Assembly (NCBI GenBank): GCA_043228905.1
Contig: JBHGNT010000010.1
Coordinates: forward strand, 16,120,001-16,184,000
Reading direction: 5' to 3'
DNA: 64,000 bases
Source of the DNA: Azolla caroliniana
Taxonomy: Eukaryota > Plantae > Polypodiophyta
A program made the position numbers and the translations under genes. How positions within the stretch are numbered: position 1 is the stretch's first letter; each line of letters opens with the position of its first letter. This document shows, piece by piece, positions 1 through 53,555 of this stretch. The notes under the pieces are model-generated. The model ran no database searches. It saw only the letters and a list, made by a program, of their open reading frames with translations, and had not been told where the DNA came from.

Positions 1-154
1 ACACTAAACACGTGGGATTCACAAGATTTATTTCTTGCTTCTCTTTCTACCTATTTCATAACTAGCCTTATATTGTATTCTTCTTTCTCCTAGTCCAACA
101 ACTCAGTGGTTCCCACCCGACTCACGCAACGATCCGGAGCCGTAAGGCACGACA
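1..154 (+). repeat. 5' LTR of element A (3' part only)
   Basis: Near-identical to 26111-26264; ends ...GACA just before the PBS. Confidence 0.9.
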
Positions 155-159
155 CAAAG

Positions 160-176
160 TGGTGAACCCGACGTGA
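160..176 (+). other. Primer binding site of element A, complementary to the tRNA-Trp 3' end
   Basis: TGGTGAACCCGACGTGA is the reverse complement of ...TCACGTCGGGTTCACCA, the plant cytosolic tRNA-Trp 3' end as recalled. Confidence 0.85.
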
Positions 177-193
177 AACCGGGTGACAAGGAG

Positions 194-1110
194 ATGGAAA
201 ATCAACCGGGGTCTAACAACATGATGGCGATGTTTGAGCGGATGCTACAAGAACAACGCGCAATGTCAGAGATTGCGGTGGCAGTAGAGCGGCTCGTGCA
301 ACAGAACGGGCAATTCAACGGGAAAGACGTGTCACGATATTTGCGAGATTACAAGGCGGAAATGCTACGGTGCGGGATTTCGGAAGGACTGCAAATGACA
401 TCCTTCAATCGGGTAGCGACCGATGGGCTTCAAGGGAGTATCCACGAGATACGGCAGCAAAATCCGACGTGGGAGGCATTTGAAGACGCGCTAAAGACCA
501 CGTTCTCCATCGAGGACTCCTCCAAGGCAACGAGGAGGAGATTTGAAGATTGGGTAAAAACACCGCATAAGGGGATGAAGGTCCTCGATGTATTTTCTTC
601 ATTCGAAAGTCGGTTCGGGAGGTTTTCTACGAGAGATCAAGCTATCCTCGCACCGGACAAAGTGATCATGTTCCTACGAGCCGTGGACATTCGGGACCGG
701 AAAGATCTTGGAGTGCTTTTGGAGGACATGACCACTAAGAGTGGCCTCACCAAAACATGGGAAAGCGTGTGGGATATCATCGCGTGATACACGAAGATGG
801 GGCAATGGCTTGCTAATGAAGAAAAGAGGGTTTCAGAACCGATTCCGAAAACAAGATCCGGACTGGAAGACCATCAACCGCGGGCTCAGGAGACTACAAC
901 CGAGAAGGGAATCGACGCAACCACGGTGGAGCAGTTGCTGAAGGAGATGGAGAATCTAAAAATCGCGATGGTGAAGAAGTTGGATGACTGTCCCACAAGC
1001 TCCAAGTACATGGACCGTCGGTGCATATGGTGCGATAGCACCCAACATGATCGGAGGGATTGCTATGAGCACAAGGAAACGTTACGACGGGATCTTATCT
1101 ACTACGATGG
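194..1110 (+). pseudogene. gag: Element A gag, 5' part (capsid region, degenerate Zn knuckle), premature TGA at 785-787
   Basis: ORFs 173..787 and 797.. share a frame; GQFNGKDVSRYLRDY motif and CIWCDSTQHDRRDC knuckle. Confidence 0.85.
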
Positions 1111-1131
1111 TGAAAACGTAAGTGTTTGTGG

Positions 1132-7479: not shown

Positions 7480-8129
7480 TGTCGAGGTATTCCTCGCGGA
7501 TGCGTGGAATGAGGCGGGACCTCGGGGGTCTTGTACCGAAGAGCAAGAGAGAAAGGAGAAGGGAAGGGACCCACTAGGTGCGAGCGTAGATCCACAGGGA
7601 CACAGCCCTTCGACACGAAGACGCGAGCGGGAGACCAACACAGAGAGACACGAAGGTATGTATGTATATATTAACAGAGGCAAACAACAAGAAGCACGAA
7701 GTCGGTTACAACCGAACAGGCCGGCGAACAGATGTTGATGCCTGTTCGCAAACGCTCAGAAAGAAAGGAGTAGGTTGGAGGTGCTACCGGAAGCACTCGG
7801 GCATTCCTCAGAGCAGCGCGAGCCTCCCCGAAACCCTGCACAGAAAGAAGCTACGGAGTATGGAAGAGAGAGAAGCCTTCGACCGACAACCCAACAGCAC
7901 TTCGTCCTCTCTGATTCCTCGATGATCCCTTCCTCCTCCCCGTCTCCCTCCTTTTATAGGCAAGAAAGGAGCCATTTCCCATTAACTTCCTACCTACCGA
8001 ATCTACCTACCTAGGATCTTCTATGTACCCAATTCTCTCTTATGTACAACATAAGATGTTCGTGCATGAAGAGCCGGTTCCTACGTTCCGGTGCACCGAT
8101 TCCGCTTGTGGACGGTTTTCTTCACGACA
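7480..8129 (-). repeat. 5' LTR of element C
   Basis: Direct repeat of 1132-1781. Confidence 0.95.
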
Positions 8130-8524
8130 GCGGAAAACGTAAAACAGAGAACAACACACAGGGAGAGAGAGAGAGCGAGAGAGACAGAGAGAGCAGAACA
8201 CAATTTCCAAAATTATATCAAGACTCTGTACTACACACTGTGCTAAGTAACACTATTTATACAAGTCCTCTTGGGACTGACAGAAGTACCATGTACTTCA
8301 ATGCTCACACGAGCATCTGACACTTACTACGAGACTATAGATACCTAGTAGTCTATCCTATTCTAGGCTTCCGATTGGACTACCGGTTACGGATTGCACC
8401 CGGCCTCCACTGCTTGCCGGTTCGGTTGCTCACCGTCATACCGATCTGTTTCGCCCGATCCGTCTCGCTTACCGGCTCCGGCTTATTCAGCCGATTCGGC
8501 TCCGGTTGAGCTTGCCGCTCAACA
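8130..8524 (-). repeat. Main part of the 3' LTR of Copia B (the remaining 21 bp lie at 1111-1131)
   Basis: Matches 13673-14067; adjacent to PPT TTGAGGGGGAG (- strand). Confidence 0.93.
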
Positions 8525-14612: not shown

Positions 14613-15674
14613 TGTCGTGATGATCCGTCACTACGCACGGATCGTGAGGCGGAACCGCTAGGGTTCTGGACCGGAAGGACTCGAAGTTGGCGCAAGCTTT
14701 AGCGAGAAAGGAATTAAGATAGATTGAAAGAGAGAGATTGAGATAAGATAGAGCGCTTGATTTTAGATTGAGAGAGAGATTAAGAACTCTTGACTTTAGA
14801 TTTCAAGAACAAGGTATATCATCCAAAGGATAACGAATTTTCTTCTTAATATTAATTTTGATTTAAAGTACAAAGCTTTTTTTTATCAAAAAAACCCCAT
14901 TGATCTTTTTTTTCATTCCCTCTTTTATAGATGCCCTCATGCATTTGAGGGTTCAAGACATGCATAAAATGCATGTTTGCCATTTGGCACTCATGTATTA
15001 CATGTGGTGCATGATAACCATGTCACTCATTTTAGCTCTCATGTATGAGAATTTATATGTAAAAGTAAAATGATATAAATATAAATTCAACTAAATGTCA
15101 TAGCTTAGTGGTAAGCCTATTGACTCTTAACTAAGAAGTGCAAGGTTCGAATCCTCACTTGCCCTCCTTGTATATTATGTGATATTTATTTATTAATTTG
15201 GTCGCCGATTGCCGGTTCCACCGGCTCGCTGGCTCCGTTTCCGTCGGATGACGGTTCCGCCGGATCACCGGCTCCATCGTCGGTCCAGTTTTGGTTGGCC
15301 AAAACCTTTACAAGTAGCTAGGCCACCTCCACTCTTAGTTCAAGTTACCTTGAACTCTCTATTCTCCACACATAGACACAAAGATAATAACTTTTGCTCC
15401 ACCTTATATATGGTGAGAGCCTTATTCGTCCTGTCTATGTGGGATATCTCATAATTTTCTCTTTTTCTTTCGCAACTTCTTACCCACATAAGTTGACACT
15501 TAGATGTCTGTTTCTTATGTAGTAAAGTGCACCTCTTCAAGATCTTCGTCTTTTATACTAAGATATTAAACTTACTTAGAATTAGTATATTCACTATTAT
15601 TGTTTTATATGATTGACACTTGATTTTGTACGTTTTATGTGATTTTCACACCATTGCCAAAAATCTTCACGACA
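14613..15674 (-). repeat. 3' LTR of element D
   Basis: TGTCGTGA...TCACGACA; similar to 20008-21150; minus-strand TATA near 14924-14931. Confidence 0.9.
15094..15165 (+). other. tRNA-like Pol III module (A box + B box) in the U3 of the D LTR, antisense to the element
   Basis: TAGCTTAGTGG at 15101 and GGTTCGAATCC at 15144. D-arm GCTT/AAGC pairs; anticodon and acceptor stems are poor. Confidence 0.7.
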
Positions 15675-17972: not shown

Positions 17973-19959
17973 TGTCGTGAAGATCCGTCACTAGGCGCGG
18001 ATCGTGAGGCGGAACTGCCTGGGTTCTGGACCGGAAGGATTCGAAGTCGGTACAAGCTTTAGTGAGGAAGTATTTAAGATAGATTGGGAAAGACAGAAGT
18101 TGAGATTAAACGCTTGAACTTCGATTGAGAGAGATTGATTGCACTTTTATCTTTAGATTTAAGAAACAAGTTACACGATCAATTCGATAGCGAATTTTCT
18201 TCTTCTTAATTTCATAACCAATCCCTTCTTTTAAAGATGCTCTCATGCATATGATGCATGTGAGGGTACAAGACATGCATAAAATGCATGTTTGCCATTT
18301 GGCGTTCATGTATTACATGTGGTGCATGATAACCATGTCACTCATTTTAGCTCTCATGTATGAGAATTTCCATGTAAAAGTACAATGATAGAAATATAAG
18401 TTCAACTAAATTTCATGGCTTAGTGGTAAGCTAATTGACTCCTAACTTGGAGGTGCAAGGTTCAAATCCTTACTTGCCCTCCTTGTATATGTGTATATAT
18501 ATTTATATATTTATTTATCTCGTCGTCGTCCGCCGGTTCGCTGGATGTCGTCGCCTCGCCGGCGTCAGATGCATTGATTAATCACGGATCGGAGATCAAT
18601 TTGATGTCCAAGGAGTTCTACCGGAAGGGGAAGTGGCCTACAAACACTAACCATGGATGGAAGATCCGAGCAGCCACTAAAGCAACGGAAGATCTATTTG
18701 CGGCTTCTCCGGATCGGCAACATCAAAGAGCTCATGCTAGCATTGATTAATCACGGATCGGAGATCAATTTGATGTCCAAGGAGTTCTACCGGAAGGGGA
18801 AGTGGCCTACAAACACTAACCATGGATGGAAGATCCGAGCAGCCACTAAAGCAACGGAAGATCTATTTGCGGCTTCTCCGGATGTGAGGGTGAAGATCGG
18901 GGATGTCGAGATCGACCAAAATTTCTTCGTACAAGACGAGGTCTCACATTCCGTGATCCTACGGCAACCCTTTATCGCAGCTTCACGGATGGAGACAAAG
19001 GTGCTCGATAGCGGTGTGGCTTTCGCACGAATTCGGAGCCAAAGCGGAGGGAAATCCGTCCAATTCCTAACTGTGCCGGAAAATCATGAAAGGAACAAGA
19101 GAGAGGTCTTGTCCCAAACAAGGATGGATTTTTAGAGTGGACTATTGCGGAGTGGGGAAGTGATAGTCCGAGAAGCCCTGATACCCTACACAGGAAGAAA
19201 ACTCTCGGAGCAAAACAAGTACGAATCGGTCCAGATGGGGCATCTACGTACACGGTCGTAACTGGAGGAAAGAAGAAAGAATACCGAAAAATAGAGGATA
19301 AGTTGCGGTCGGCATCAATAATAAAAGAAGACGAAGAAATCATGGGGGTAGTCAAAGAAGTGTTCTATGGGATCACGCTACAACGGCTTGAAGAGCTTCT
19401 AGAGGATAAAAGCCGAGGAGACCGGGTAGTCCCGGTGGAATCGGTCGAGATGTACGAGATCATTGCGAAAATGGGGTAAGCTAATTGACTCCTAACTTGG
19501 AGGTGCAAGGTTCAAATCCTTACTTGCCCTCCTTGTATATGTGTATATATATTTATATATTTATTTATCTAGTCGTCGTCCGCCGGTTCGCTGGATGTCG
19601 TCGACTCATTTTAGCTCTCATGTATGAGAATTTCCATGTAAAAGTACAATGATAGAAATATAAGTTCAACTAAATGTCATGGCTTAGTGGTAAGCTAATT
19701 GACTCCTAACTTGGAGGTGCAAGGTTCAAATCCTTACTTGCCCTCCTTGTATATGTGTATATATATTTATATATTTATTTATCTAGTCGTCGTCCGCCGG
19801 TTCGCTGGATGTCGTCGCTCTTGAAGACCTCCATCATTTTGTACTTAGATATTAAACTTCTTTAAAATGTTATCTTCACTATTATTGTTTTATGTGATTA
19901 ATACTCGATTTTGTACGTTTTATGTGATTTTCACACTATTGCCGAAAATCTTCACGACA
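17973..19959 (-). repeat. Middle LTR of D: diverged variant containing a 907-bp filler from element A and internal duplications
   Basis: Starts TGTCGTGAAG next to the PBS and ends CTTCACGACA; 19475-19602 and ~19603-19817 repeat parts of 18340-18553. Confidence 0.8.
18571..19477 (+). repeat. 907-bp duplicate of the element A protease/linker region 21333-22239
   Basis: Nearly identical (about 7 substitutions by eye), including the same 169-bp tandem duplication. Confidence 0.9.
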
Positions 19960-20007
19960 TCTCCTCCATCTTCCGTCTCTTCGATCTCACGTTGCACCAC
20001 TTAATTA

Positions 20008-21150
20008 TGTCATGAAGATCCGTCACTACGCGCGGATCGTGAGGCGGAACCGCTAGGGTTCTGGACCGGAAGGACTCAAAGTTGGCGCAAGCTTTAGCGG
20101 GAAAGGAATTAAGATAGATTGAAAGAGAGAGATTGAGATAAGATAGAACGCTTGATTTTAGATTGAGAGAGAGAGTAAGAACTCTTGACTTTAGATTTCA
20201 AGAACAAGGTATATCATCCAAAGGATAACGAATTTTCTTCTTAATATTAATTTTGATTTAAAGTACAAAGCTTTTTTCTATAATAAAAAAAGTCCCATTG
20301 ATCTTTTTCATTCCCTCTTTTATAAATGCCCTCATGCATTTGAGGGTTCAAGACATGCATGTTTGCCATTTGGCGCTCATGTATTACATGTGGTGCATGA
20401 TAACCATGTCACTCATTTTAGCTCTCATGTATGAGAATTTATATGTAAAAGTAAAATGATATAAATATAAATTCAACTAAATGTCATGGCTTAGTGGTAA
20501 GCCTATTGACTCTTAACTAGGAAGTGCAAGGTTCGAATCCTCACATATATGTGATATTTATTTATTTATTTGGTCGCCAGATGTCGTCGGTTACCAGTAG
20601 TTGTCGTCGGATGCCGATGCGCCGGCGCCGGTTACCGTATGTCGTCGCCTCGCCGGCGCCGGATGCCGTCGGATGTCGGTTCCACCGACTCGCTGGCTCC
20701 ATCTCCGTCGGATGACGGTTCCGCCGGATAACCGGTTGCCGGTGTGCCACCGTCGCCGGTCCAGTTTTGGTTGGCCAAAACCTTTACAAGTAGCTAGGCC
20801 ACCTCCACTCTTAGTTCAAGTTACCTTGAACTCTATATGCTCCACACATAGACACAAAGATAATAATTTTTGCTCCACCTTATATATGGTGAGAGCCTTA
20901 TTCGTCTTGTCTATGTGGGATATCTCATAATTTTCTCTTTTTCTTTCGCAACTTCTTACCCACATAAGTTGACACTTAGATGTCTGTTTCTTATGTAGTA
21001 AAGTGCACCTCTTCAAGATCTTCGTCTTTTATACTAAGATATTAAACTTACTTAAAATTAGTATATTCACTATTATTGTTTTATATGATTGACACTTGAT
21101 TTTGTACGTTTTATGTGATTTTCACACCACTGCCGAAAATCTTCACGACA
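20008..21150 (-). repeat. 5'-most LTR of element D
   Basis: TGTCATGAAG...CTTCACGACA, flanked by TSD TCGT; tRNA-like module at 20487-20540. Confidence 0.9.
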
Positions 21151-21897
21151 TCGTGAAGAGAAAAAGACAACATACGGAGGAAAATGCTTCAAGGGTAAAT
21201 ACGAACATGGTTTTAATGAATGACACCGAAGTGGAGGACGAAATTACGAACTCCCACTACACAAGGCCACACTGGGCACGTGCAACTACGGAGACTCCGG
21301 TCCGAATCGGCAACATCAAAGAGCTCATGCTAGCATTGATTAATCACGGATCGGAGATCAATTTGATGTCCAAGGAGTTCTACCGGAAGGGGAAGTGGCC
21401 TACAAACACTAACCATGGATGGAAGATCCGAGCAGCCACTAAAGCAACGGAAGATCTATTTGCGGCTTCTCCGGATCGGCAACATCAAAGAGCTCATGCT
21501 AGCATTGATTAATCACGGATCGGAGATCAATTTGATGTCCAAGGAGTTCTACCGGAAGGGGAAGTGGCCTACAAACACTAACCATGGATGGAAGATCCGA
21601 GCAGCCACTAAAGCAACGGAAGATCTATTTGCGGCTTCTCCGGATGTGAGGGTGAAGATCGGGGATGTCGAGATCGACCAAAATTTCTTCGTACAAGACG
21701 AGGTCTCACATTCCGTGATCCTACGGCAACCCTTTATCGTAGCTTCACGGATGGAGACAAAGGTGCTCGATAGCGGTGTGGCTTTCGCACGAATTCGGAG
21801 CCAAAGCGGAGGGAAATCCGTCCAATTCCTAACTGTGCCGGCAAATCATGAAAGGAACAAGAGAGAGGTCTTGTCCCAAACAAGGATGGATTTTTAG
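21151..21897 (+). pseudogene. Element A protease region with a 169-bp frameshifting tandem duplication
   Basis: HWARATTETPV, ALINHGSEIN (catalytic D replaced by N), ends MDF-stop; 21306-21474 repeated at 21475-21643. Confidence 0.85.
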
Positions 21898-24800
21898 AGT
21901 GGACTATTGCGGAGTGGGGAAGTGATAGTCCGAGAAGCCCTGATACCCTACACAGGAAGAAAACTCTCGGAGCAAAACAAGTACGAATCGGTCCAGATGG
22001 GGCATCTACGTACACGGTCGTAACCGGAGGAAAGAAGAAAGAATACCGAAAAATAGAGGATAAGTTGCGGTCGGCATCAATAATAAAAGAAGACAAAGAA
22101 ATCATGGGGGTAGTCAAAGAAGTGTTCTATGGGATCACGCTACAACGGCTTGAAGAACTTCTAGAGGATAAAAGCCGAGGAGACCGGGTAGTCCCGATGG
22201 AATCGGTCGAGATGTACGAGATCATTGTGAAAATGGGGTTGGATGCGCTCCACAGAAGAAGCAATGGTAAGTACAAAATACAAGACCGTGGAGAAGAAAG
22301 TGAAACCGGCCACGGAACCGTTACCCTCCGATAGCAAGCAAAAGAGGAAAGAAGTCTCGGGAGATCCGACACTTTCGGAAGTCCGTGGATATCAGACATG
22401 CCTTCACGGATGAGACCCAAAAGAAACTTTGGATCGGTGGAGGTGGTTTCCTTTTACAAAATCAAGAAGAATGATTCGTGGGATGTTGGAACAACATGGG
22501 AAAGCATTTGCATTCACATCGAAGGAGATAGGGTGCGTTGATCGAAGATAGTGGAACCGATGGTGATCTTCACGATTGACCATGTGTCGTGGAACTTGAA
22601 GCCGATTCCGGTGCCACAGACGCATATTCCCAAAATCATCGACTTGCTCAAGGAGAAGGTGGCGATGGGGATTCTAGAGCCATCAAACGCTCCGTACTCA
22701 AATCGATGGTTTACGGTTCCGAAGAAGAATGGGTCACTCCGATTTATCCAAGACTTGCAACTGGTGAACAAGGTCACGATCCGGAACTCCGGAGTCGGTC
22801 CAATAGTGGACGAATTTGCGGAAACATTTGTCGGTCGTGCAATATACTCCATCGGAGACCTATACTCGGGGTATGACCAATTCCAACTAGCCATCGAGAG
22901 CCGAGACATCACTACCATGCGGACACCGATAGGATTAGTTCGAATGTGCACACTACCACAAGGAGCGACAAACTAGGTTGCACATATGATGAACGCGATG
23001 AACAAGGTGCTTTGAGATTGCATTCCGGAGATACCGATGTCGTTCCTAGATGACATTCCGATGACAGGATGCACGGTAGAAGAAAAAGATGAAACTATGG
23101 ATGATCGGGGATGCCTAAAGTTTGTAGTCAACCATATTCGTGATTGCGAGAAAGTGCTTCGAAAGTTAGAAGATGTGCACCTAACACTTTCCGGGGAGAA
23201 ATCGGCATTCGGGCAAGAAGAGATATTGGTACTCGGACATCTATGTGGGCCCTACGGCCGAAGACCGTCTCCAACCAAGATCGATGCGATTCAAGCTATG
23301 AAAGAAGTATGCGAGTCATAATCCGAAGTCCGAAGCTTTCTTGGAGCTTGTGCATTTTATCACATATAGATTCCGCACTATGCACATATTGCGGACCCAC
23401 TCTATCACTTATTGCAGAAGGGGAAGAAGTTCGAATGGAAACCGGAACACGCCAAAGCCATGAAGAAGCTCAAGAAAACATTACGGAGGGCTGAAGCACT
23501 TAAGAAGCCGAGCTATGAGCGACCAATCATAGTAATGGTTGATACAAGTCCAACCGGGATCGCATGGGTCATCAATCAAGCCGACTCGGATGGTTTGCAA
23601 TATCCGATCCGATTCGGAGCAAAGGTTCTTAACGAAAGGCAACGCGGATATGCACAAGTCAAAAGAGAATTATGAGGAGTCGTGTCAGCAATCAAATCGG
23701 ATCCAAATTATTTGATTGGAGCCAAAGTAGTGATCGAAACGGATTGTTTTCCGATACTCGGGATGATGTGGTGTTGCACGATACCGGATGTGGCTATGCC
23801 AAGGTGGATTGCATATGTTAAGTCACTTAACCCGGAGGTACGACACATCTCCGGAAAAGACAACGTGGTAGCAGATATGCTATCAAGGGCTCGGTTCGGA
23901 GACGACATAACCGAATCCGATAATGAAGAAGTTTCTGAAGACTACTTTGCTTCGGAGCACATATGCCGGGTGAACGTAATCCGAGTATTCCGGGAAGAAG
24001 AATAGGAGGGAGAAAGCTTGTTGATCGGGAAAGTGCTACAAGAAATGGAGGAATCATCGGACAATAAAGAGAAGAGAGCCGAGATCCGAAGTAAGAAGCG
24101 GCAAGTTCGAAAGTTCTTCTTGAAAAATGGATTAATATGGAGGGAGCCAAAAAGACCGGATGGCATACCACTTTGAGTAGTCAGGACGAAAGAGCAACGA
24201 AACCGGATAATGTCCGAGTTTCACGAATCTGATTGGGCTGGAAATCAAGGGACATGGGCAACTTTTGCGAAAATCAAACAAAAATATTGGTGGAAGAATA
24301 TGTAAAAAGATATAGCGGAGTTCACGGAAAGCTGCGAGAAGTGTCAAATCTACTCCGGAGTTCGACACCGAGATGAGTTACATCCGACATTCTCACCGAC
24401 AATCAACTTCAAATGGATGGTCGACATTGTAGCCATGCCAACCGGGATCGAACAAAAGAAGTACTTGGTGTTAGCTCGGGAAGATCTCACAAACCAAGTA
24501 GAAGGTCGGGCGCTACGAAGGAAAACGTGTTCTACGGTATGCGAATTTCTTTTGGAGGAGGTGTTTTGCAGGTACGGGTGCGTAGGACAAGTGATTGCGG
24601 ATCGGGGAGAACTTGACTCTAATAAAGCTAGGGAATTCTTCACCAAACATGGAGTTCGGTTAACACTAACAACGGCATACAATCCGGAGGCCAATGGGAA
24701 AATCGAACGAGGACATAGTCCAATCGTCAAAGCACTGCATGCAACGGAAGGGCGAAGGATTGACCGCAGATGCTCCTGTATGCACTATGGGCAGATCGGA

Positions 24801-25476: not shown

Positions 25477-26264
25477 TGTCGTAGTGTAAATGGCACACTA
25501 TGAGAAAATTGCATTTTTGGTTCCTCCGGATGGGACGAAGCAGAGCCGGCAAGAGCCGGATGAAGAAAGTCGGTAAGAACCGGTAAGGAGGATCCGGTAA
25601 GAACCGGAACAAGCAGAACCGGCAAGAGCCGGATAAAGAAGGTCGGTGAGAGTCTCTCACCGGATGAAGAGACAAATTTGTAAAATAGAAGAAAATATTT
25701 ATTACGTGCATAGGGCAAGATTTAAACCTTGTACCTCCACGTAGATAAACCCCAACCTTACCATTGTACTAACTTATCCTAAGTGTTCTAAATATAGATT
25801 TAATACGTACAAGACCTTTATTTACGCCTACCTTTATTAAAAGGTAATTCATGCATTTTTAGAATGCGTGAATACTTTAATTATAAGAAAAATGTACACC
25901 AATAAAAAATTACCCGTGCACATTTAGTGTGCATGAACACTTTAGAAAAAGCATGAAACTATGCTTAGCCTCTTCCATCCTTATATAATATATTCGTGGG
26001 ATGTATGAGGTTGTTGATTTTTTACAAGGATTGATCAATCTAATATATTCATGGGATTCACGAGTTTATCATCAAAATTCTCTTTCTTATAATCTAAATA
26101 TTGATTAAATACACTAAACACGTGGGATTTCCAAGATTTATTTCTTACTTCTCTTTCTACCTATTTCATAACTAGCCTTATATTGTATTCTTCTTTCTCC
26201 TAGTCCAAAACCTCAGTGGTTCCCACCCGACTCACGCAACGATCCAGAGCCGAAAGGCACGACA
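25477..26264 (+). repeat. 3' LTR of element A (788 bp)
   Basis: TGTCGTAG...CACGACA after the PPT; CCGG-rich short repeats at 25545-25665; TATA near 25982. Confidence 0.9.
25706..25778 (-). other. tRNA-like Pol III module in the U3 of the A LTR, antisense to the element
   Basis: Minus strand reads TAGTACAATGGTAAG...GGAGGTACAAGGTTTAAATCTT, with the same 43-nt A-to-B box offset as the D module. Confidence 0.55.
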
Positions 26265-29200
26265 ACGTGCATCCTAACACCATCACCAACAGCCAGATCC
26301 GGTCGGTGTTGGGCCTGCAGCGAGGCGAGGACCATGACATCGAGCCTCCACCTCAGAACGTCCTCGAAGCTTATTTCAAGTAGTACTCGGTGTCGGCAAA
26401 GGTGTATCGTATACAAGGCGGCCCTAACAATTTCTTTGGCTGCCAAATTTCTTTTGGAATTCGGCTGCATGCACGCTAATGTGTACAACATGCCGCAGAA
26501 GAAGGAAAGAATAATCATCACCGCCTACAGAGGCAGTGCACTGAATTGGGGAATCATCACAAGGGAAGGAGTTCGCGTCGGCTTGTTGGCTTTCCAGGTA
26601 GGGAAACAATTCTTGCCTGCCTAGCACACTTCTTATTTGTGGTTTACCCCCCCCCCCCCCCAATCCACTATCGTACCCCACCAAACCCTCACCCTCCCCA
26701 CCCACCCTAGTGAAACGACAATGAGATTTACAATTAGCTCAAGAAGAATGGCAAGATGATACGTCTGTCCAAACTCCCACCGCGCCACGACCGACCATCG
26801 ATACTAGGGCCCATGAGCACGAAGACAATTTCACCATAAGGGGGTGCAACAAACCTAAGTCATCTGCCCTGGTGGAAAAACCAAAACTAAAAGTGCCCAA
26901 GCCGCGAAAGAACCGCAGGGAAGAGACCCGGACAATTACAATTGACACCAGTCGGTCATCCGGGGAGCAACCGAAATGGCTCAGAGAATATAGTCAGCCA
27001 ACGCGACAAAAACCTCCCACATGAGCCCTGGCAAGAAACGTCGCAAGTTGCACCGACACAATGAAGAAGCGAAGAGTGAAAGAACTCCTCAGCCGAACAC
27101 CACCAATGGGTCATCGCTCTCGAAAAGAAAATCAATGTCATCCCAGAAAAAGCCATGTCGTTGATAGAGATTACGGAGAAGGGACAAGCGTCCCCTGTCT
27201 TGAAGGAAGAAGTGATGACCTTCAGGGACATGCCCACCGAAGCCTATGAGCTCAGTGCAATCTTACAACACGGCATGGCGTACGAGATAATCGACCTTCT
27301 CACTCCTCTCCAGTTTGTCACGGCAGCACGAATGGCCCAGGAACATGTCGAGTAACAGATGGTCCAACGGGCGCTCACCAACGAGCTCGAATCAGACGAG
27401 GAGCCACAGCTGTAGAAAATTGACCGGAAACGACAAACTATGTCCCGTCACACATGAATTGAGTTACCTGAGCTGAACACGGCCCTAGTCGAACCTTACC
27501 AAGAACTGGACAAGATGACCTGCGCAACTAAAGATATGGAGACCAGTAGAAAACAAGCACGCAAACAGGCCAAGACGGCCACAAAACTGTGGGAGGCTTC
27601 GGAAAGCGGAAGAGCCGAGCTTGAGCAACAGCTCAAAGAAAACGGGCAAACAAACACTCTCGCCCTTCCAGCCCCAGTTTTCAACCATATGGATGTGTCC
27701 ACACAGACCGATGACACAATCGACTCGATGTCGGCCACTGAAATGATCGAGGTCCCTCCACCCACCTACGAAGAGGAGCTTGCAGCACTATTGGCAATCG
27801 CTGAGAAAGAAAAAGAGCGCTATGAAGCAGCCAAAGTAGAAGCCAAGAAAATCCGGGAGCAGGCAACAAAACGCAAAGCTGAACTACAAGAACGGCTCGA
27901 CACACACACAACCAAGCTCCGAGAAATTGAAGAAAATGCCGCACTTGCTTTTTGGGCAGCAAACGAGGCTTTTGTGGCTAAAATACATGATATTGAGGAA
28001 GGATACCAACGGGTTGCGGCCATTGCCAACGACCAACTCATCAGTCTCCAAAACGAGCACACATAACTCCAAGAAAGTTTCAACCGGCAGCTTGTAATGT
28101 TGGAAGAAGCGGTGCAGGACAAATATACATTGTCGAAGTCCCTCCACCAGCATTGCACAAGACCGGGAATGGGAGCACAAACGGTATCTGCATGAGTTAG
28201 CCACGAATTCAGATCGGCTTCTCCGACACTACAACCAACATACGGAAGAAATCGAGGCAAAGCTCGTCGGGGTTATCGCGTCTCTCGAAATCATGAAAGC
28301 CAAGCTCGTGATTGACGTTGCAACTGCCAAAGAGGAATTGGACACCCTACGTGCCAAATACAAGATGGGCGAAGCACGAGTAAAGGCACTAGTTGCAAAG
28401 CACAGGATCAAGCTGAATTAGAAGATCGAAGAGGCACTAGCTCACGGATGGAAAGAATGGTCAGCTCAAGAAGCTGAATTGTAGGTCTTTCGAGCAGATG
28501 CCGAAAATCGGAAAAAAGAGGGCCGCGGATTTTCCAAAATGGATGATAACATCATTCAGATCCTCCGTGAAGACCTCACCAAGGAATTCCAAGCTTTGGC
28601 CCGAACACACAACACTGGCATTGGAAACCTCCTAGAGGAATTTAACGATGATCAACTGTTTCCCATGATTGAAACAGAAGGTTATAAACGTGCGTGTCTC
28701 CAAGCCGAAAAGGAAATAGAAACCGCAGCACAAGCCTTAGCAGGCAAGATGACCGAGGAAGCAGCCCAGGAGCTAAAAGAAGAAGAAAACTAGGAGCCGA
28801 AGGAAGAAGAGGCGACACACCCCGGCCCGGAGATGGAACAAGTGGTTGAACATGACAGGAACTACACGCTCCGTTTAAACAACTCTCGGCCACAACCGAG
28901 CCTAGAATAAAACACAGAAAATAGGGAATGAAACACAACACGATAGAGAGAAGAGTACACAGGATGTTTACGTGGAAAACCCAAACTCGGGAAAAAACCA
29001 CGGCAGCCCACAGACCGCAAATTATCACTATGTCAGAATGTATAATAAGAAAGCACCGAGGCCACGACCTCGAGCTTGCTATCTTCGCCACAGGCGGCGG
29101 TTACAATCAGAGGCAACGACCTCTTCCTCTCTCTCGCTCTCTTTGTACACAGTTGCACGCTCCAATCTTGCGCCAACAAGAATGACAACAACTATCATCA

Positions 29201-30439
29201 TAAACAAAGTTTGCCCTAAGTCATATTTATACTAATATGACTTTTTGGCTATTTACAAATATAGCCCCGATGGACTCTCAGGAACATATTTACAAATATG
29301 TCCCTTCATCCGATGAGCACTCCTCACTGGGCCTTCATCATCCGGCTCTTGTCGGGTACTCCTCATCTGGTTCTCACCGGGTCTTCCATAGCCGGGTACT
29401 CCTCATCCGGTTCGCACCGGATCTTCCGTAGCCGGGTACTCCTCATCCGGCGCTTGCCGGGTACACCACATCCGGTTCTCACCGGGTCCTCCATAGCCGA
29501 GTACTCTTCATCCGGTTTCTCACTTCCCATCCGGAGGAACCTGTTTCCCAACAGAACAGACCATAGAGCCAAAGCAGGAGGAAGTGGCTATGGAAGCTAC
29601 ATACCAACGGCTCGATTTGTTAGCCGAGTTCCACACGAACGAGCCAAAACAGGAGGAGAAGACTCAAGAGCCAGTGGAACAAACTACATCCCAAGAGAAC
29701 ACGGAACAAAGGGTCGATCTCAAACTAAGGGAATCGGAGCAACCGAAGGGCATCACATCAATTTTGGAAGAAGACTGAGTGTAGAAATAGCATTTTTTTC
29801 AGCTCTTTCAAATAACCCTATTCTCAAATTCTCGATTTCGATTTTTTGGAGCGATTTTGTCTTTTTGGGTTCAACGTGCAAGGCACTGTCCCATAGGCAT
29901 GCCAAATGTTATCCATGGGACAAAAGGCACGAGGTGTGAAACGAATCTTAAAGAGCCGAGTAGGTCAAGTATGTAAAAAGGGAATCGACCGAGCACTCGT
30001 TGCCAAGGAAGGTAGAATGAAATACATGCAGCCGAGAATAAAGGTCGTGAATTAGGAGGAAGTAGATAAAGCGCGCCAAGCAGAGAATAGGCTATATAAA
30101 TCATGGAAGAGCAGAAGGAAAAGGAGGAGTGAATATATGCATAGGTTATGATATAGAAGAGAGTGTGTGTGTGACTAATAGTATCGGCCTATGTTGCCTG
30201 GTAATCAATACGTGGAGTAATCAATATACATACTTTGTGGGTCATCTCTATGTCTGTTCCATCTTAATCTGTACTTTCAATTCTGTTATTCTAAGTCGTA
30301 AGTGGAAAGCCGGTTGTGGCCGACTATCGTGTAACGGTTCGGCCTACACGGCCCTATCATAGTCCCCTATGTAACCATGATTCCTTGACCCGATTACCCA
30401 GGGAGTAATCGAAGGTGTTATTCCAAGAAGGAGATAACA
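26265..30439 (+). mobile_element. Element E: 3' part of an LTR retrotransposon with a long degenerate extra ORF and probable 3' LTR (29935-30439)
   Basis: Broken sense ORF 26265-29778 (ITNSQIRSVLGL..., NWG motif, coiled-coil and acidic C-terminus). Purine-rich stretch, then TGTGAA...GATAACA with a TATA at ~30093; F pol resumes at 30440. The second LTR lies outside the window. Confidence 0.6.
28853..29553 (-). mobile_element. Solo LTR (Copia-like), 701 bp, inserted in the extra ORF of E
   Basis: TG...CA ends and perfect 5-bp TSD GAACA (28848-28852 / 29554-29558); TTTACGTGGAAAACCC...AAAAACCACGG motif; internal tandem CCGGGTACTCCTCATCCGG repeats at ~29338-29533. Confidence 0.9.
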
Positions 30440-31320
30440 TGGGGGCTTGGTGATATGCGCGTAATGGGGAATCCAAATGTGGTAGAAGGTGTGAGCTCCC
30501 AGGAACTGTCGGACCTTTGTGACTGGCCTGCACTCTTCCTTCATCGTCGTGATGGCCTCTACCTTGGCCAGAGACGGTTTCCGACCATAAGGTCCACACA
30601 GGTGTCTGACCACCAAAACCTCCGATTGTCCGAACACCGACTTCTCCCCAGAGAAGGTAAGTCGAGCGCCCTCAAGCCTTCGCAACATTTCTCGTAATCG
30701 GAGATGTGGTCTGCAACGAATTTACGACATCCATCTGTTCCAACTGTTTCGTCCTTCGTGTCCTCCGAACATCCCTTAATCAGGATATCGTCTAGAAACG
30801 GCATGGTGATGTCCGGGATGCAATCCCTCAGCACCTTATTCATTGCATTCACCATGTGTACCACCGAATTGGTACCTCCTTGAGGTAGGGTACACATCCG
30901 AAGTAAGCCGAGAGAGGTGTCAAGATTCGAACTCTTGACACGACCATGTTATAATCTACTATTATGAGTTAACCAAGATATCTAGTACTAGTTATGTATG
31001 TAATTGGTCCTTATTATTTTGCTAGCATCGTGTGCATAGTTGCTCCCTTGTAGTATTTACACTTGGCACATGCATGCATACCTACATGCTCTATTGTAGA
31101 TTCACATGCGTGCAACAAGTATGCATGCCATGTAGTATAAATAGAGGAGTTCACCTTGAAGGAATTCAAGGTGAACAACACCAGTTATGGAGTCTTTCCT
31201 TTAGTACTATCTTCTTTCTTGTCCATTTGGTTATCTTCTTGGTTGTCTCTCGAGTTTATGATCTGTGACAGTTTGTTCACCTTCCCATCCTCATAGCTCT
31301 CCCTCTCATAAGCCATAGCT

Positions 31321-35300: not shown

Positions 35301-35859
35301 TGCTAGTGAACGATACAAGAAGCAGGCTGATCGCCATCGATCTTCCACTCCACACTTTGTCGTTGGAGACATGGTCTGGTTGTTACGTCGACACATCTCT
35401 ACTACTCGTCCATGTGCGAAACTTGATTACAAGAAGTTGGGACCATTCCGTATCATCGAGTGCATCAATCCCGTCGCCTTCCGGCTCGCCCTTCCATCCC
35501 ACTTCCGGATTCACGATGTTTTTCATGTCTCCCTCCTCGAACCCCGTTATGCTTCACAACTCCCAAGCCGTCAAGCCCCACCACCACCACCTGTGCAATT
35601 GACGACAGGGGAGGAATACAAGGTCGACCAAATCCTTGACTCGCGTTGGCACCGTCGACACTTGCAATACCTCGTCCTATGGAGGGGTTACCCCATGTCT
35701 GAGGCCACATGGGAACCATCGGCAAATTTACAAAATGCCCCAAAGGTCGTCCAAGATTTTCATCACCGATATCCCCACAAACCAGCGGCCGATTTGGGAA
35801 GGCGACGTAAGAGGGGGGATAATGTCAAGATTCGAACTCTTGACACGACCATGTTATAA
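32310..35859 (+). pseudogene. pol: Chromovirus Pol (PR-RT-RH-INT-chromodomain) in the -1 frame, with nonsense and frameshift lesions
   Basis: LLDSGASS, YLDDILI, ETDASDFAIG, DKELAAI, HHCC, SDRGPQF, GPF, and EYKVDQILDSR...YLVLWRGY...TWEP chromodomain. Stops near 32420, 34401 and 34702. Confidence 0.92.
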
Positions 35860-50865: not shown

Positions 50866-53555
50866 AATTAACTGTCATGCAATGTCCATTCCATATATAA
50901 GAGAAAAAAAAACACTTTATCCCTTTCTCTCTAACCATGTAACATTTCAATGTCCACCTCCAAAAGTACCCCTATACAAAAAAACACTTCCCCTATCTCT
51001 CTCTCTAACTAACTGACTGACTGACGTTCCAATGTCCACCTCCAAAGATACCTCTATATCGCACACACAAATACGTGCTTTCTCTAAAAGTACCCTTGTA
51101 AACTAACTAACATTCCACCTCTAAAAGTACCCCTATAAAAATTAACGTGTTTTGTTTCTTAGGCACGTGTTCCTATGATTCCAAGTCTCCTTCCCCTCCA
51201 ATAAAACCCCTTTGGTACACCCATTTTTATCTCCCCCTTCCCAGCACTTTTGTACACCCTTTCTTCCTTCTCATTTCTCAATGTTTGCACCCTATTTTGT
51301 TAGCAAAATTTTCACTTGTCCCTAGCACCTCCCAAATGTACTTATCTCTTTCGTCTATCTTATCACTTCCTCCATCATATATCTATCTCGATATTAGTAA
51401 AACAAGCCATTTGATTTGGCCCTTTTTTCATTTGTCCTTTGCAATCAAGAAACACAAACTTGGAATCAACAAATAAAATCATCTCGTTTGGCTCCTTTTT
51501 ATTTGTCTATCACAATCACTAATCACAAGCTTGAAATCATCACACAATACCATGTGGTTTGGTTCCTTCTTATTTGTCCTTAGCCATCTCACATCACAAG
51601 CAAAATGTAGTGATAATATTAGCTTAAAGGAAACAACATTCTACCCCGCCAAAACCTCCTTTGTTTCTATTTATCCCTAAAAGTACACAAAATTTATGTG
51701 TCAAATTTATTACATTGCCAACCCAACTAGGTTTCGAGGCCTTGTACAAATTCGGAATTCTGTCATAGATGTGTTTGACATCATTTCATTTACAAATTAA
51801 GTTGTAATTAATTTTGCAATAAACTCTCTTGTTTTTAGAGCGATTAAAATTAAGTTTGGTCATTGCACATGTTTTCATGTTGAACTATACTCCATGTGAT
51901 GTTTCGCAATTATAGAAGATGTCCATAAACAATTCGTCAATGAAAAAATCGTCAATTGATTGTGTGATTTGTTTTACTATAAGTTTTCGCATTATTCGCA
52001 TCTATCTCAATGAGTGGCATCTCAATGAGAGGTTCAAGTCCAGAAATCAATAATGAGGGAATGAAATTGGGACATGTGTGGTGCCCACTACTTATCGATC
52101 ACGAATTCCTAGTTGTGTAATGTGATGATGCCTTCTGACTTGTTTGCTATGATGGAAGCTTGTATGGCAATGTGGGCACACCAACATTGTCCAATGGTAA
52201 ATTTGGAAAAGCAAGCAATAATGTACGCAAAAAGAAGAAGTTATGAAAGATGGATGAAAACTTTTTATTCAAGAGGGTATACCTATGTACACAACCGTCG
52301 CATTGTTAGTGATGAAATTTCTTTGTTGTTGGAAGTAGCTCATGTGTATAACAAACACTTGAATTGAATGTACAATTGCTTAGAAATAGGCTAGAAAAAC
52401 ATGTTGCTCATGCAATATATACATTAATTATAACTAGGTAACTATTATAAATATTGGCTTAGCTCTAATTGTGTAATTTGATAATGTGAAGCACATTTAT
52501 AAGCACAAATTCCATCATAAGATATTCAGACCTACGTAATGTTATCGGGGATCGATATTCCTTAGGAAGTGATGTGACAGTATATATAGTGTCACAATAT
52601 AGTACAAGTTTCATCTTGCAATCCTGTACAAAACTTCTTGTTGTTGTAATTGAGTCCAATGTGCATACAACTTCATACATATATAGTATTGTATGGCCAT
52701 TACCAAGAGGGAATCATCAATCAAACTTGATTGCCAATCTCCATTGGTCTTGTCACTGTGTTACTACCATAGTGTGTTGATGTTGCAACACGAATTCGAT
52801 ATAAGCAAGGCACATTCAAGACAATATTCTTGTTGATGACCATATATATTGGGAAATGGTTGTGACATGGTTGGGTGAATGAAAGGGCAATACTTCGTTG
52901 GATGCAATGTTGATCAAGCTACTTGGGATTGCCTAATGATTTATATAGTACATAATGGCCATGTAACTGAACAATGGGTAAGTGAGGGTGTGCGTAGAGC
53001 CCCAAACAAATGATTCTAACAGACTCGAGGGGTTGGGGGTTGGATAGAAATAATGGTAGATTTGATCATCGTAAAGAACCGAAATGAAACATGAACTCTA
53101 GGACCAAGTTGAAAGATTTTATTGTAGTATGTGTTTCAAGCTGATTATTGACTCTGGGTAGTGAAGAAATCTATCGATGAAGGTTGCAATTGGGAGTGCA
53201 TCGTGACTGCGAGAGAAATGTGTATCGGGCGGGGTAAGTTTGGATTCACAATGAGGGGGAGCTAGACTCGAATGTGCAAAGAGGCATTCTAATAGGGAGG
53301 GGTGATATGTATATGTATACTTTAGGGACACACGAGATACGTTAGGTGCACAACATGTTCATTGGAAAGGGTGTTCATAAAATTTGAATGCAAAAAGAAA
53401 TGGATATGGAGGGGGGGCAAGGAAGGGGTGGGCATGGGAAAGGCTGTTAAAAACAAATCAAAATTTGAATGAGAGATATGCTATATAGGAATGTGTGTGT
53501 GTTAATTGGCTCACAATAACTCAAAGGCAGCTTGTCAAACCTTTATAATTGATGG

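Follow-up and report, generated by a model that had tools for sequence, protein, structure and literature searches.

Reversed tRNA-type promoter boxes in the LTRs of protein-coding Gypsy retrotransposons of two lineages in a plant genome

Why should the LTR of a retrotransposon with its own apparent Pol II promoter carry, in reverse, a sequence laid out like a tRNA gene? The question is raised by element A, one of several LTR retrotransposons whose nest fills the first 40 kb of the window, by which is meant the whole 64,000-nucleotide stretch analysed here (C10:16120001-16184000, from a plant genome of 523 Mb); an SBP-domain gene lies at 55.3 kb of the same window. A preliminary description had reported a tRNA-like cassette in the 3' LTR of A, homologous to one in element D, and had taken it for an ancestral module retained in one sub-lineage while the rest of U3 turned over. 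The elements concerned lie as follows:

25477..26264, plus strand: 3' LTR of A, 788 bp, identical to the 5' LTR at 745 of 786 positions
1..154, plus strand: end of the 5' LTR of A, the rest of which extends about 648 bp upstream of the window
about 160-177, plus strand: primer site of A, an 18-nt match to the genome's tRNA-Trp(CCA)
1132-1781 and 7480-8129: LTRs of B
14613-15674 and 20008-21150: LTRs of D, an element on the minus strand

Elements A, B, D and G have in common an 18-nt primer site matching the genome's tRNA-Trp and 4-nt, CG-centred target sites (CG at flank positions 2-3 in 6/6 ends inspected), and the integrase frame of B gave no match to a chromodomain. Short, non-chromovirus elements with a tRNA-Trp primer site and an NCGN target site are described as Phygy in the relevant passages of Neumann 2019 (PMC6317226). 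By these described traits (NCGN site, short element, tRNA primer, no chromodomain), rather than by reference RT placement, A, B, D and G are Phygy-like non-chromovirus Gypsy elements. Element C is a Copia element and F a chromovirus, making these two unsuitable as sister controls for A, whereas B and G belong to A's own lineage, are valid controls and lack the module. Taken together, these lineages suggest a seedless land plant. B sits inside one LTR of C (window 1107-1131 and 8130-8524), the RT region of G is interrupted by the insertion of F, and E (window about 28850-29553, minus strand) is a Copia-like solo LTR, labelled by eye. E and the 5' end of A's LTR (25580-25684) have CCGG-rich repeats in common, 77% identical over 108 bp, which suggests exchange of U3 sequence between superfamilies.

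The module of A and its surroundings comprise:

25771-25761, minus strand: A box, in U3 of the 3' LTR of A
25728-25718, minus strand: B box, in the same U3, its CpG decayed in this copy
25718..25771, minus strand: whole module, consisting of A box, 32-nt spacer and B box
25692..25695, minus strand: first T4 run after the B box, a possible Pol III stop
25980..25989, plus strand: TATA-like box of A's Pol II promoter, inferred from its position, with similar boxes in family copies

Most of the layout first reported for this module is borne out. From the start of the A box at 25771 to the B box (25728-25718) the offset is 43 nt, the module is antisense to the element in both A (plus strand) and D (minus strand), and the TATA-like box has its start at 25980-25982, some 210 bp from the A box. 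A TTTT does follow, 22 nt past the B box, but it is not clearly nearer than chance, T4 being equally near at 29-31% of positions in A-type LTRs. Similarly, the B-box mismatches had been put down to C-to-T decay, which holds for the CpG, where the changes from the canonical box are C>T and G>A; the final T is not simply decay, since it is common in the family and often found in both LTRs. The local match of this module to that of D', a rearranged D-family insert, scored 33 versus 16.6 +/- 2.1 in 1000 dinucleotide shuffles of A's LTR, none of which reached it (0/1000), and the module is also present in A's 5' LTR. A's LTR retrieved 30 loci, 29 of which span the module site. Canonical boxes with decayed CpGs are seen in these family copies: the A box is the same in 22/29, and the centre of the B box reads CG in 7, TG in 11, CA in 5, TA in 1 (the window copy) and otherwise in 5, so that CG or a deamination product is found in 24/29. 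The assignment of the module therefore stands, because the A family has canonical boxes and the match lies beyond all shuffles. Outside the module the LTRs of A and D are indeed dissimilar, with no BLAST match at E<1; the modules of A and D' are identical at 34/54 nt in register. None of the LTRs of B, C, F, G and E stands out in the comparison that exposed A's module, and a lone B-box-like match at 52031 was rejected as lacking an A box.

Both LTRs carry the module in A, in D and in 16 further A-lineage elements, and both boxes are present in all 30 D-family loci. The copies within D and D' are:

15101..15154, plus strand: module in one LTR of D (LTR 14613-15674)
20487..20540, plus strand: module in the other LTR of D (LTR 20008-21150)
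18416..18469, plus strand: module in D'
19680..19733, plus strand: second full module in D'
at 19509: third module of D', shortened to a B box only

D' (17973-19961) thus holds two and a half modules; it also includes a 907-bp copy of A's internal region (18571-19477 versus 21333-22239, 99.2% identity).

No module had been found in the LTRs of C and F. There is nothing in C, but an antisense B box stands at the start of each LTR of F, accompanied by an A box that is degenerate:

30923..30933, minus strand: B box of the 5' LTR of F, 5 nt inside the LTR, in a T-arm-like hairpin; A box degenerate
35828..35838, minus strand: B box of the 3' LTR of F, as in the 5' LTR

The start of the F LTR forms a perfect 8-bp inverted repeat around the 7-nt T-loop of the B box (30918-30940, 35823-35845). 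The F family is very young, with 40/40 scored copies 99-100% alike, and encodes Chromo and SH3_Tf2-1 domains; after the 5' LTR lies a sequence complementary to a stretch inside the LTR, as read by eye. The passages of Neumann 2019 (PMC6317226) on Tcn1 chromoviruses describe a chromodomain element with apparent self-priming, and F and its relatives are Tcn1-like chromoviruses as judged from their domains and apparent self-priming rather than from a reference tree. The relatives were sampled as 40 loci fetched of 150 scored SH3 matches, with the LTR located in 36. In one clade (16 plus F) an antisense B box lies 5-31 nt from the LTR start in 17/17 rows, with a good A box in 11/17, whereas the other clade has no such box in the first 200 nt of the LTR (20/20). 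As F is nested among families with full modules, it has likely lost its A box.

RT trees of the non-chromovirus elements were built from 60 fetched of 150 scored DUF4100 matches (58 chosen for long open frames) and 20 targeted loci; for the final tree 14 close rows were thinned (54 to 40), L098 was rescored for an insertion in its 5' LTR, and L104, which carried another element's RT, and the near-duplicate L100 were dropped. The module falls in the A clade, in the D clade and in two deep rows (L123 and L127), and it was found in 20/20 A-lineage elements retrieved through an integrase search. It was not detected in the B clade, nor in two clades more closely related to D than A is; for these two sister clades of D, the 0.7-1.5 kb before the primer site were scanned. 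A single RT clade of A and D is rejected (p-AU 0.0003), and one of all carriers has p 0.033. Spacer identity defines three classes of module: an A/D-type class, with 15-27/32 identity within it and intermediates such as L149 and L111; class 2, with 19-27/32 within it and 8-15 to class 1; and a chromovirus class, with 10-15/32 to the others. Since intermediate forms bridge them, the modules of A and D are homologous, and the classes may represent separate captures. The original account was thus correct in that the A/D module persists while the neighbouring U3 turns over, but not in confining it to one sub-lineage, given the rejection of an A and D clade and the other module classes in deep-branching relatives and in the chromovirus clade that includes F. 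Ancestral gain followed by losses is indistinguishable here from repeated capture or swapping of U3. What is observed is a module that is real, common in the genome and spread well beyond the sub-lineage first proposed. Comparison with copy number or age reveals no link, young families existing with and without it; the B clade and one chromovirus clade that lack the module include very young copies with LTRs 99.9-100% alike, and the existence of such families indicates that the module is optional.

All carriers are protein-coding Gypsy elements, 5-7 kb long and equipped with a TATA box; the module lies 150-256 bp from the TATA in the nine non-chromovirus LTRs measured. The module is antisense in the LTRs of A, D, class 2 and the chromoviruses and is found in sense orientation only in the L112 family, where a class-1-like module lies about 150 bp upstream of the TATA in 12/12 copies examined, with T4 about 20 nt after it; no RT was found around this family in 11 stretches, and it was left off the tree. 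The class-2 LTRs of L123 (C18:12334564-12344464) and L015 have two tandem antisense modules, and L123, L015 and L116 have a further degenerate sense module about 80-100 bp downstream of the TATA, with a similar one in L155. The LTRs of A, D, L117, L123, L127 and L149 contain CATGCA-rich repeats, presumably an RY-like motif, directly before the TATA; such repeats are found in families with and without the module. One A-lineage family is very young: of the 150 copies listed, dozens have the same integrase score and an intact pol frame of 1241 aa.

In 1.15 Mb of loci, a set that is enriched by design and overlapping, 169 box pairs were scored, with an offset of 43 in 156 and of 44 in 7, and none was scored in 393 kb of shuffled sequence. 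The module thus consists of tRNA-type (type 2) internal promoter boxes, A and B, 43-44 nt apart in 163/169 pairs. An exact 21-nt pattern has 928 matches in the genome and its reversed control 0; the first 30 of these matches are 24 D and 6 A-type copies, all LTRs. A second exact pattern has 3549 matches (control 0), of which the first 30 comprise 26 chromovirus-type and 4 class-2 copies. The A/D-type pattern also occurs in five metagenome contigs, within A-like LTRs that are 70-86% identical in the flanks. At C8:17.80-17.82 Mb, C16:4.99-5.11 Mb, C5:17.98-18.02 Mb, C2:20.11 Mb and L131, tRNA genes are arranged in tandem, each array being made up of a single isotype (Trp-type 3' ends, Lys, Ile, Leu) and some arrays including decayed copies.

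One explanation of such a sequence is that a SINE or a tRNA once inserted into U3 and left behind a neutral relic, which hitch-hikes there. Its patchiness on the tree and its dispensability are what a relic would show, as is the resemblance of the D module to tRNA-Arg(TCT), which is marginal (spacer score 19 versus a shuffled maximum of 18, in an incomplete panel of 28 tRNA sequences) and comes with an AT-rich tail after the module. A free SINE was found nowhere among the 60 pattern matches sampled (30/30 and 30/30 LTR-type), a sample of chromosome-1 matches to patterns derived from LTR copies, and similar modules occupy the same LTR position in two unrelated lineages, both of which count against a relic. 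A difference present in both LTRs of an element predates its insertion, and differences shared in this way were used as pre-insertion changes. In the A lineage (20 LTR pairs) the key box positions vary in 4/14 columns versus 105/170 others (p 0.016), and in D (9 LTR pairs) in 2/14 versus 84/170 (p 0.010), tests in which indel-rich flanks inflate the contrast and three of the A pairs are assumed from proximity. Tests of the B core by itself are not significant (p 0.10 and 0.28). The B core of A differs at 0.053 per site versus 0.22-0.32 in the flanks, whereas in D it is no more conserved (0.10) than the spacer (0.08), so that in D the whole module is conserved and not the boxes alone, as a relic would have it. 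Across 20 family representatives, C56 is present in 18/20, G53, T54, T55, A58 and C61 in 20/20, A14 is invariant and an unscored AGGT precedes the B box in 18-20, versus modal shares of 0.47-0.57 in flank and spacer; this comparison is partly circular because the modules were recognised by their boxes. In the youngest, high-copy A subfamily the edges of the boxes have changed and the B core is the same. After insertion, the CpG of the B box has decayed in 8/22 LTR pairs versus 117/763 for other CpGs of the LTR (p 0.015), and in resident copies it evidently has no protection against decay of the methylation type. The boxes are, therefore, conserved while the surrounding DNA changes, and the sequence pattern indicates that the module is probably under selection. 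With box positions spared as spacer and flanks turn over, and a hypermutable CpG maintained, a neutral relic is improbable.

What, then, might be selected? The main rival to the explanation preferred below is an active Pol III promoter, making a short RNA that starts divergently from the Pol II start (about 85-95 nt long in A), is antisense to U3 and regulates the element or its silencing; such activity may coexist with a protein-binding site. The conserved A box, the 43-nt offset and the AGGT fit a working Pol III promoter equally well, both boxes and their offset are kept in most families (156/169 at 43 nt), T4 follows the B box at 22-23 nt in A-type LTRs and at about 20 nt in the sense family, and the foamy-virus LTR cassettes, as described in part of PMC3993851, are a tested precedent. 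The predicted RNA itself is less constant. The spacer is wholly different between classes (8-15/32 identical), no RNA fold is conserved across the modules, F has lost its A box and the orientation flips in one family. In eight LTRs the distance from the B box to the first T4 ranges from 5 to 128 nt and is for the most part no shorter than expected by chance, and the chromovirus modules reach the LTR end without one. The module of A has no cloverleaf, its stems pairing at 3/7, 2/4, 1/5 and 3/5 positions, ARAGORN finds no tRNA in the window and Rfam gives no tRNA match there at E<=10. Two polyA data sets labelled with the same species name yielded 71 and 64 reads over 6.3 kb, the majority <95% alike. 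About 17 and 12 of these lie over A's module and point the same way as reads that pass from the LTR into the primer site; they look like one variant copy and show no pile of ends. A chromovirus LTR drew 17, 12 and 12 reads. As libraries of 150-nt polyA reads cannot show a short Pol III RNA, the reads are no evidence either way. On balance, a Pol III promoter as the selected function is rather doubtful.

A role at the level of genomic RNA is another alternative. Pairing of a tRNA with U3 sequence assists priming or strand transfer in Ty3 and, through U3-R, in HIV-1, and the 3' U3 of these elements could likewise pair with the primer tRNA or with other tRNAs. The antisense orientation is what pairing needs, and D-type modules rank the primer tRNA-Trp 3rd-5th of 28 tRNAs by predicted duplex energy. 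For A-type modules tRNA-Trp ranks 17th-28th of 28, so that pairing with the primer tRNA is not supported for A, and neither the sense orientation of one family nor the presence of modules in chromoviruses that are apparently self-primed, with no tRNA primer site, is in line with this idea, for which the chance appears slight.

The explanation preferred here is that the module is kept as a binding site for TFIIIC that flanks the Pol II promoter on its outer side, a proposal whose prospects of being right or wrong are evenly poised. The core of the B box is the motif for which TFIIIC has its highest affinity. A tRNA gene or the head of a SINE would have been the source of the module in U3, captured more than once or moved by recombination of U3; TFIIIC would bind the DNA of this putative site and act as a barrier or chromatin opener for the element's Pol II promoter, and Pol III may transcribe some copies as well. 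This TFIIIC-site reading is favoured because what is invariant is the B-box DNA motif, and not an RNA shape, a terminator or a direction, and because TFIIIC barriers are known in yeast. Against it stand the observation that the module is dispensable, being absent from the B clade and from one chromovirus clade, the non-significant tests of the B core by itself, the B core of D being no more conserved than its spacer, and the decay of the B-box CpG in resident copies. It also counts against the proposal that a barrier role of TFIIIC in plants would be an analogy with yeast and mammals.

Several known systems are related to this arrangement. The sections of Kojima 2024 (PMC10886601) on Helenus and Cassandra/Ajax (TRIMp3) describe elements whose two LTRs each contain sequence derived from a tRNA; it is conserved near boxes A and B but includes no functional tRNA, and TRIMp3 is proposed there to have arisen through SINE insertion into an LTR. 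TRIMp3 are short, non-autonomous TRIMs of 311-1263 bp that are thought to be transcribed by Pol III; the same sections expect Pol II use by autonomous partners and mention, with no analysis, the presence of tRNA-like parts in 'not a few' LTRs of Repbase. Having tRNA-derived sequence in both LTRs is the likeness. The present carriers differ in that they encode RT and integrase, many of A's integrase relatives having the 1241-aa frame, and in that their module mostly points away from the element, being in sense only in L112; because size, coding and orientation differ, they do not belong to Helenus. Foamy viruses, according to the relevant parts of PMC3993851, likewise have an A/B-box Pol III promoter cassette inside the LTR of an autonomous retroelement, but make defined hairpin RNAs with terminators, whereas the modules here have neither a conserved RNA fold nor a conserved terminator and are laid out like a decayed tRNA gene. 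In yeast, as outlined in PMC12409998, TFIIIC-dependent barriers are formed by ETC sites and tRNA genes, which resemble the present modules in an invariant B box, an A box that can be lost and a position at the edge of a transcription unit; they are known as host loci of yeast and mammals, whereas these are putative sites carried by plant retrotransposons. The relevant passages of Neumann 2019 (PMC6317226) make no mention of Pol III boxes in Phygy or Tcn1 LTRs, and the word 'tRNA' does not occur in the text available of PMC7466625 on moss retrotransposons. Searches of full-text papers, few of them from subscription journals, gave no account of autonomous plant elements arranged in this way; Repbase entries and the supplements of PMC10886601 and PMC6317226 may list such LTRs.

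LTRs with Pol III promoters are thus on record from foamy viruses and from TRIMs, which are tiny and non-coding; in the present case Pol III-type boxes occur, reversed, in abundant, recently active, protein-coding plant elements of two lineages. Read more boldly, and tentatively, the sequences would suggest that two unrelated Gypsy lineages repeatedly captured tRNA promoters as portable TFIIIC insulators that shield their Pol II promoters from flanking heterochromatin, and in doing so seeded the genome with thousands of TFIIIC sites that would far outnumber its real tRNA genes. At least 4,400 exact matches that contain the B box could titrate TFIIIC or shape chromatin. The natural relatives with and without the module, together with A-box-less and inverted variants, make these families suited to testing TFIIIC insulation in plants, and to asking whether retrotransposons recruit Pol III factors of the host to counter silencing.
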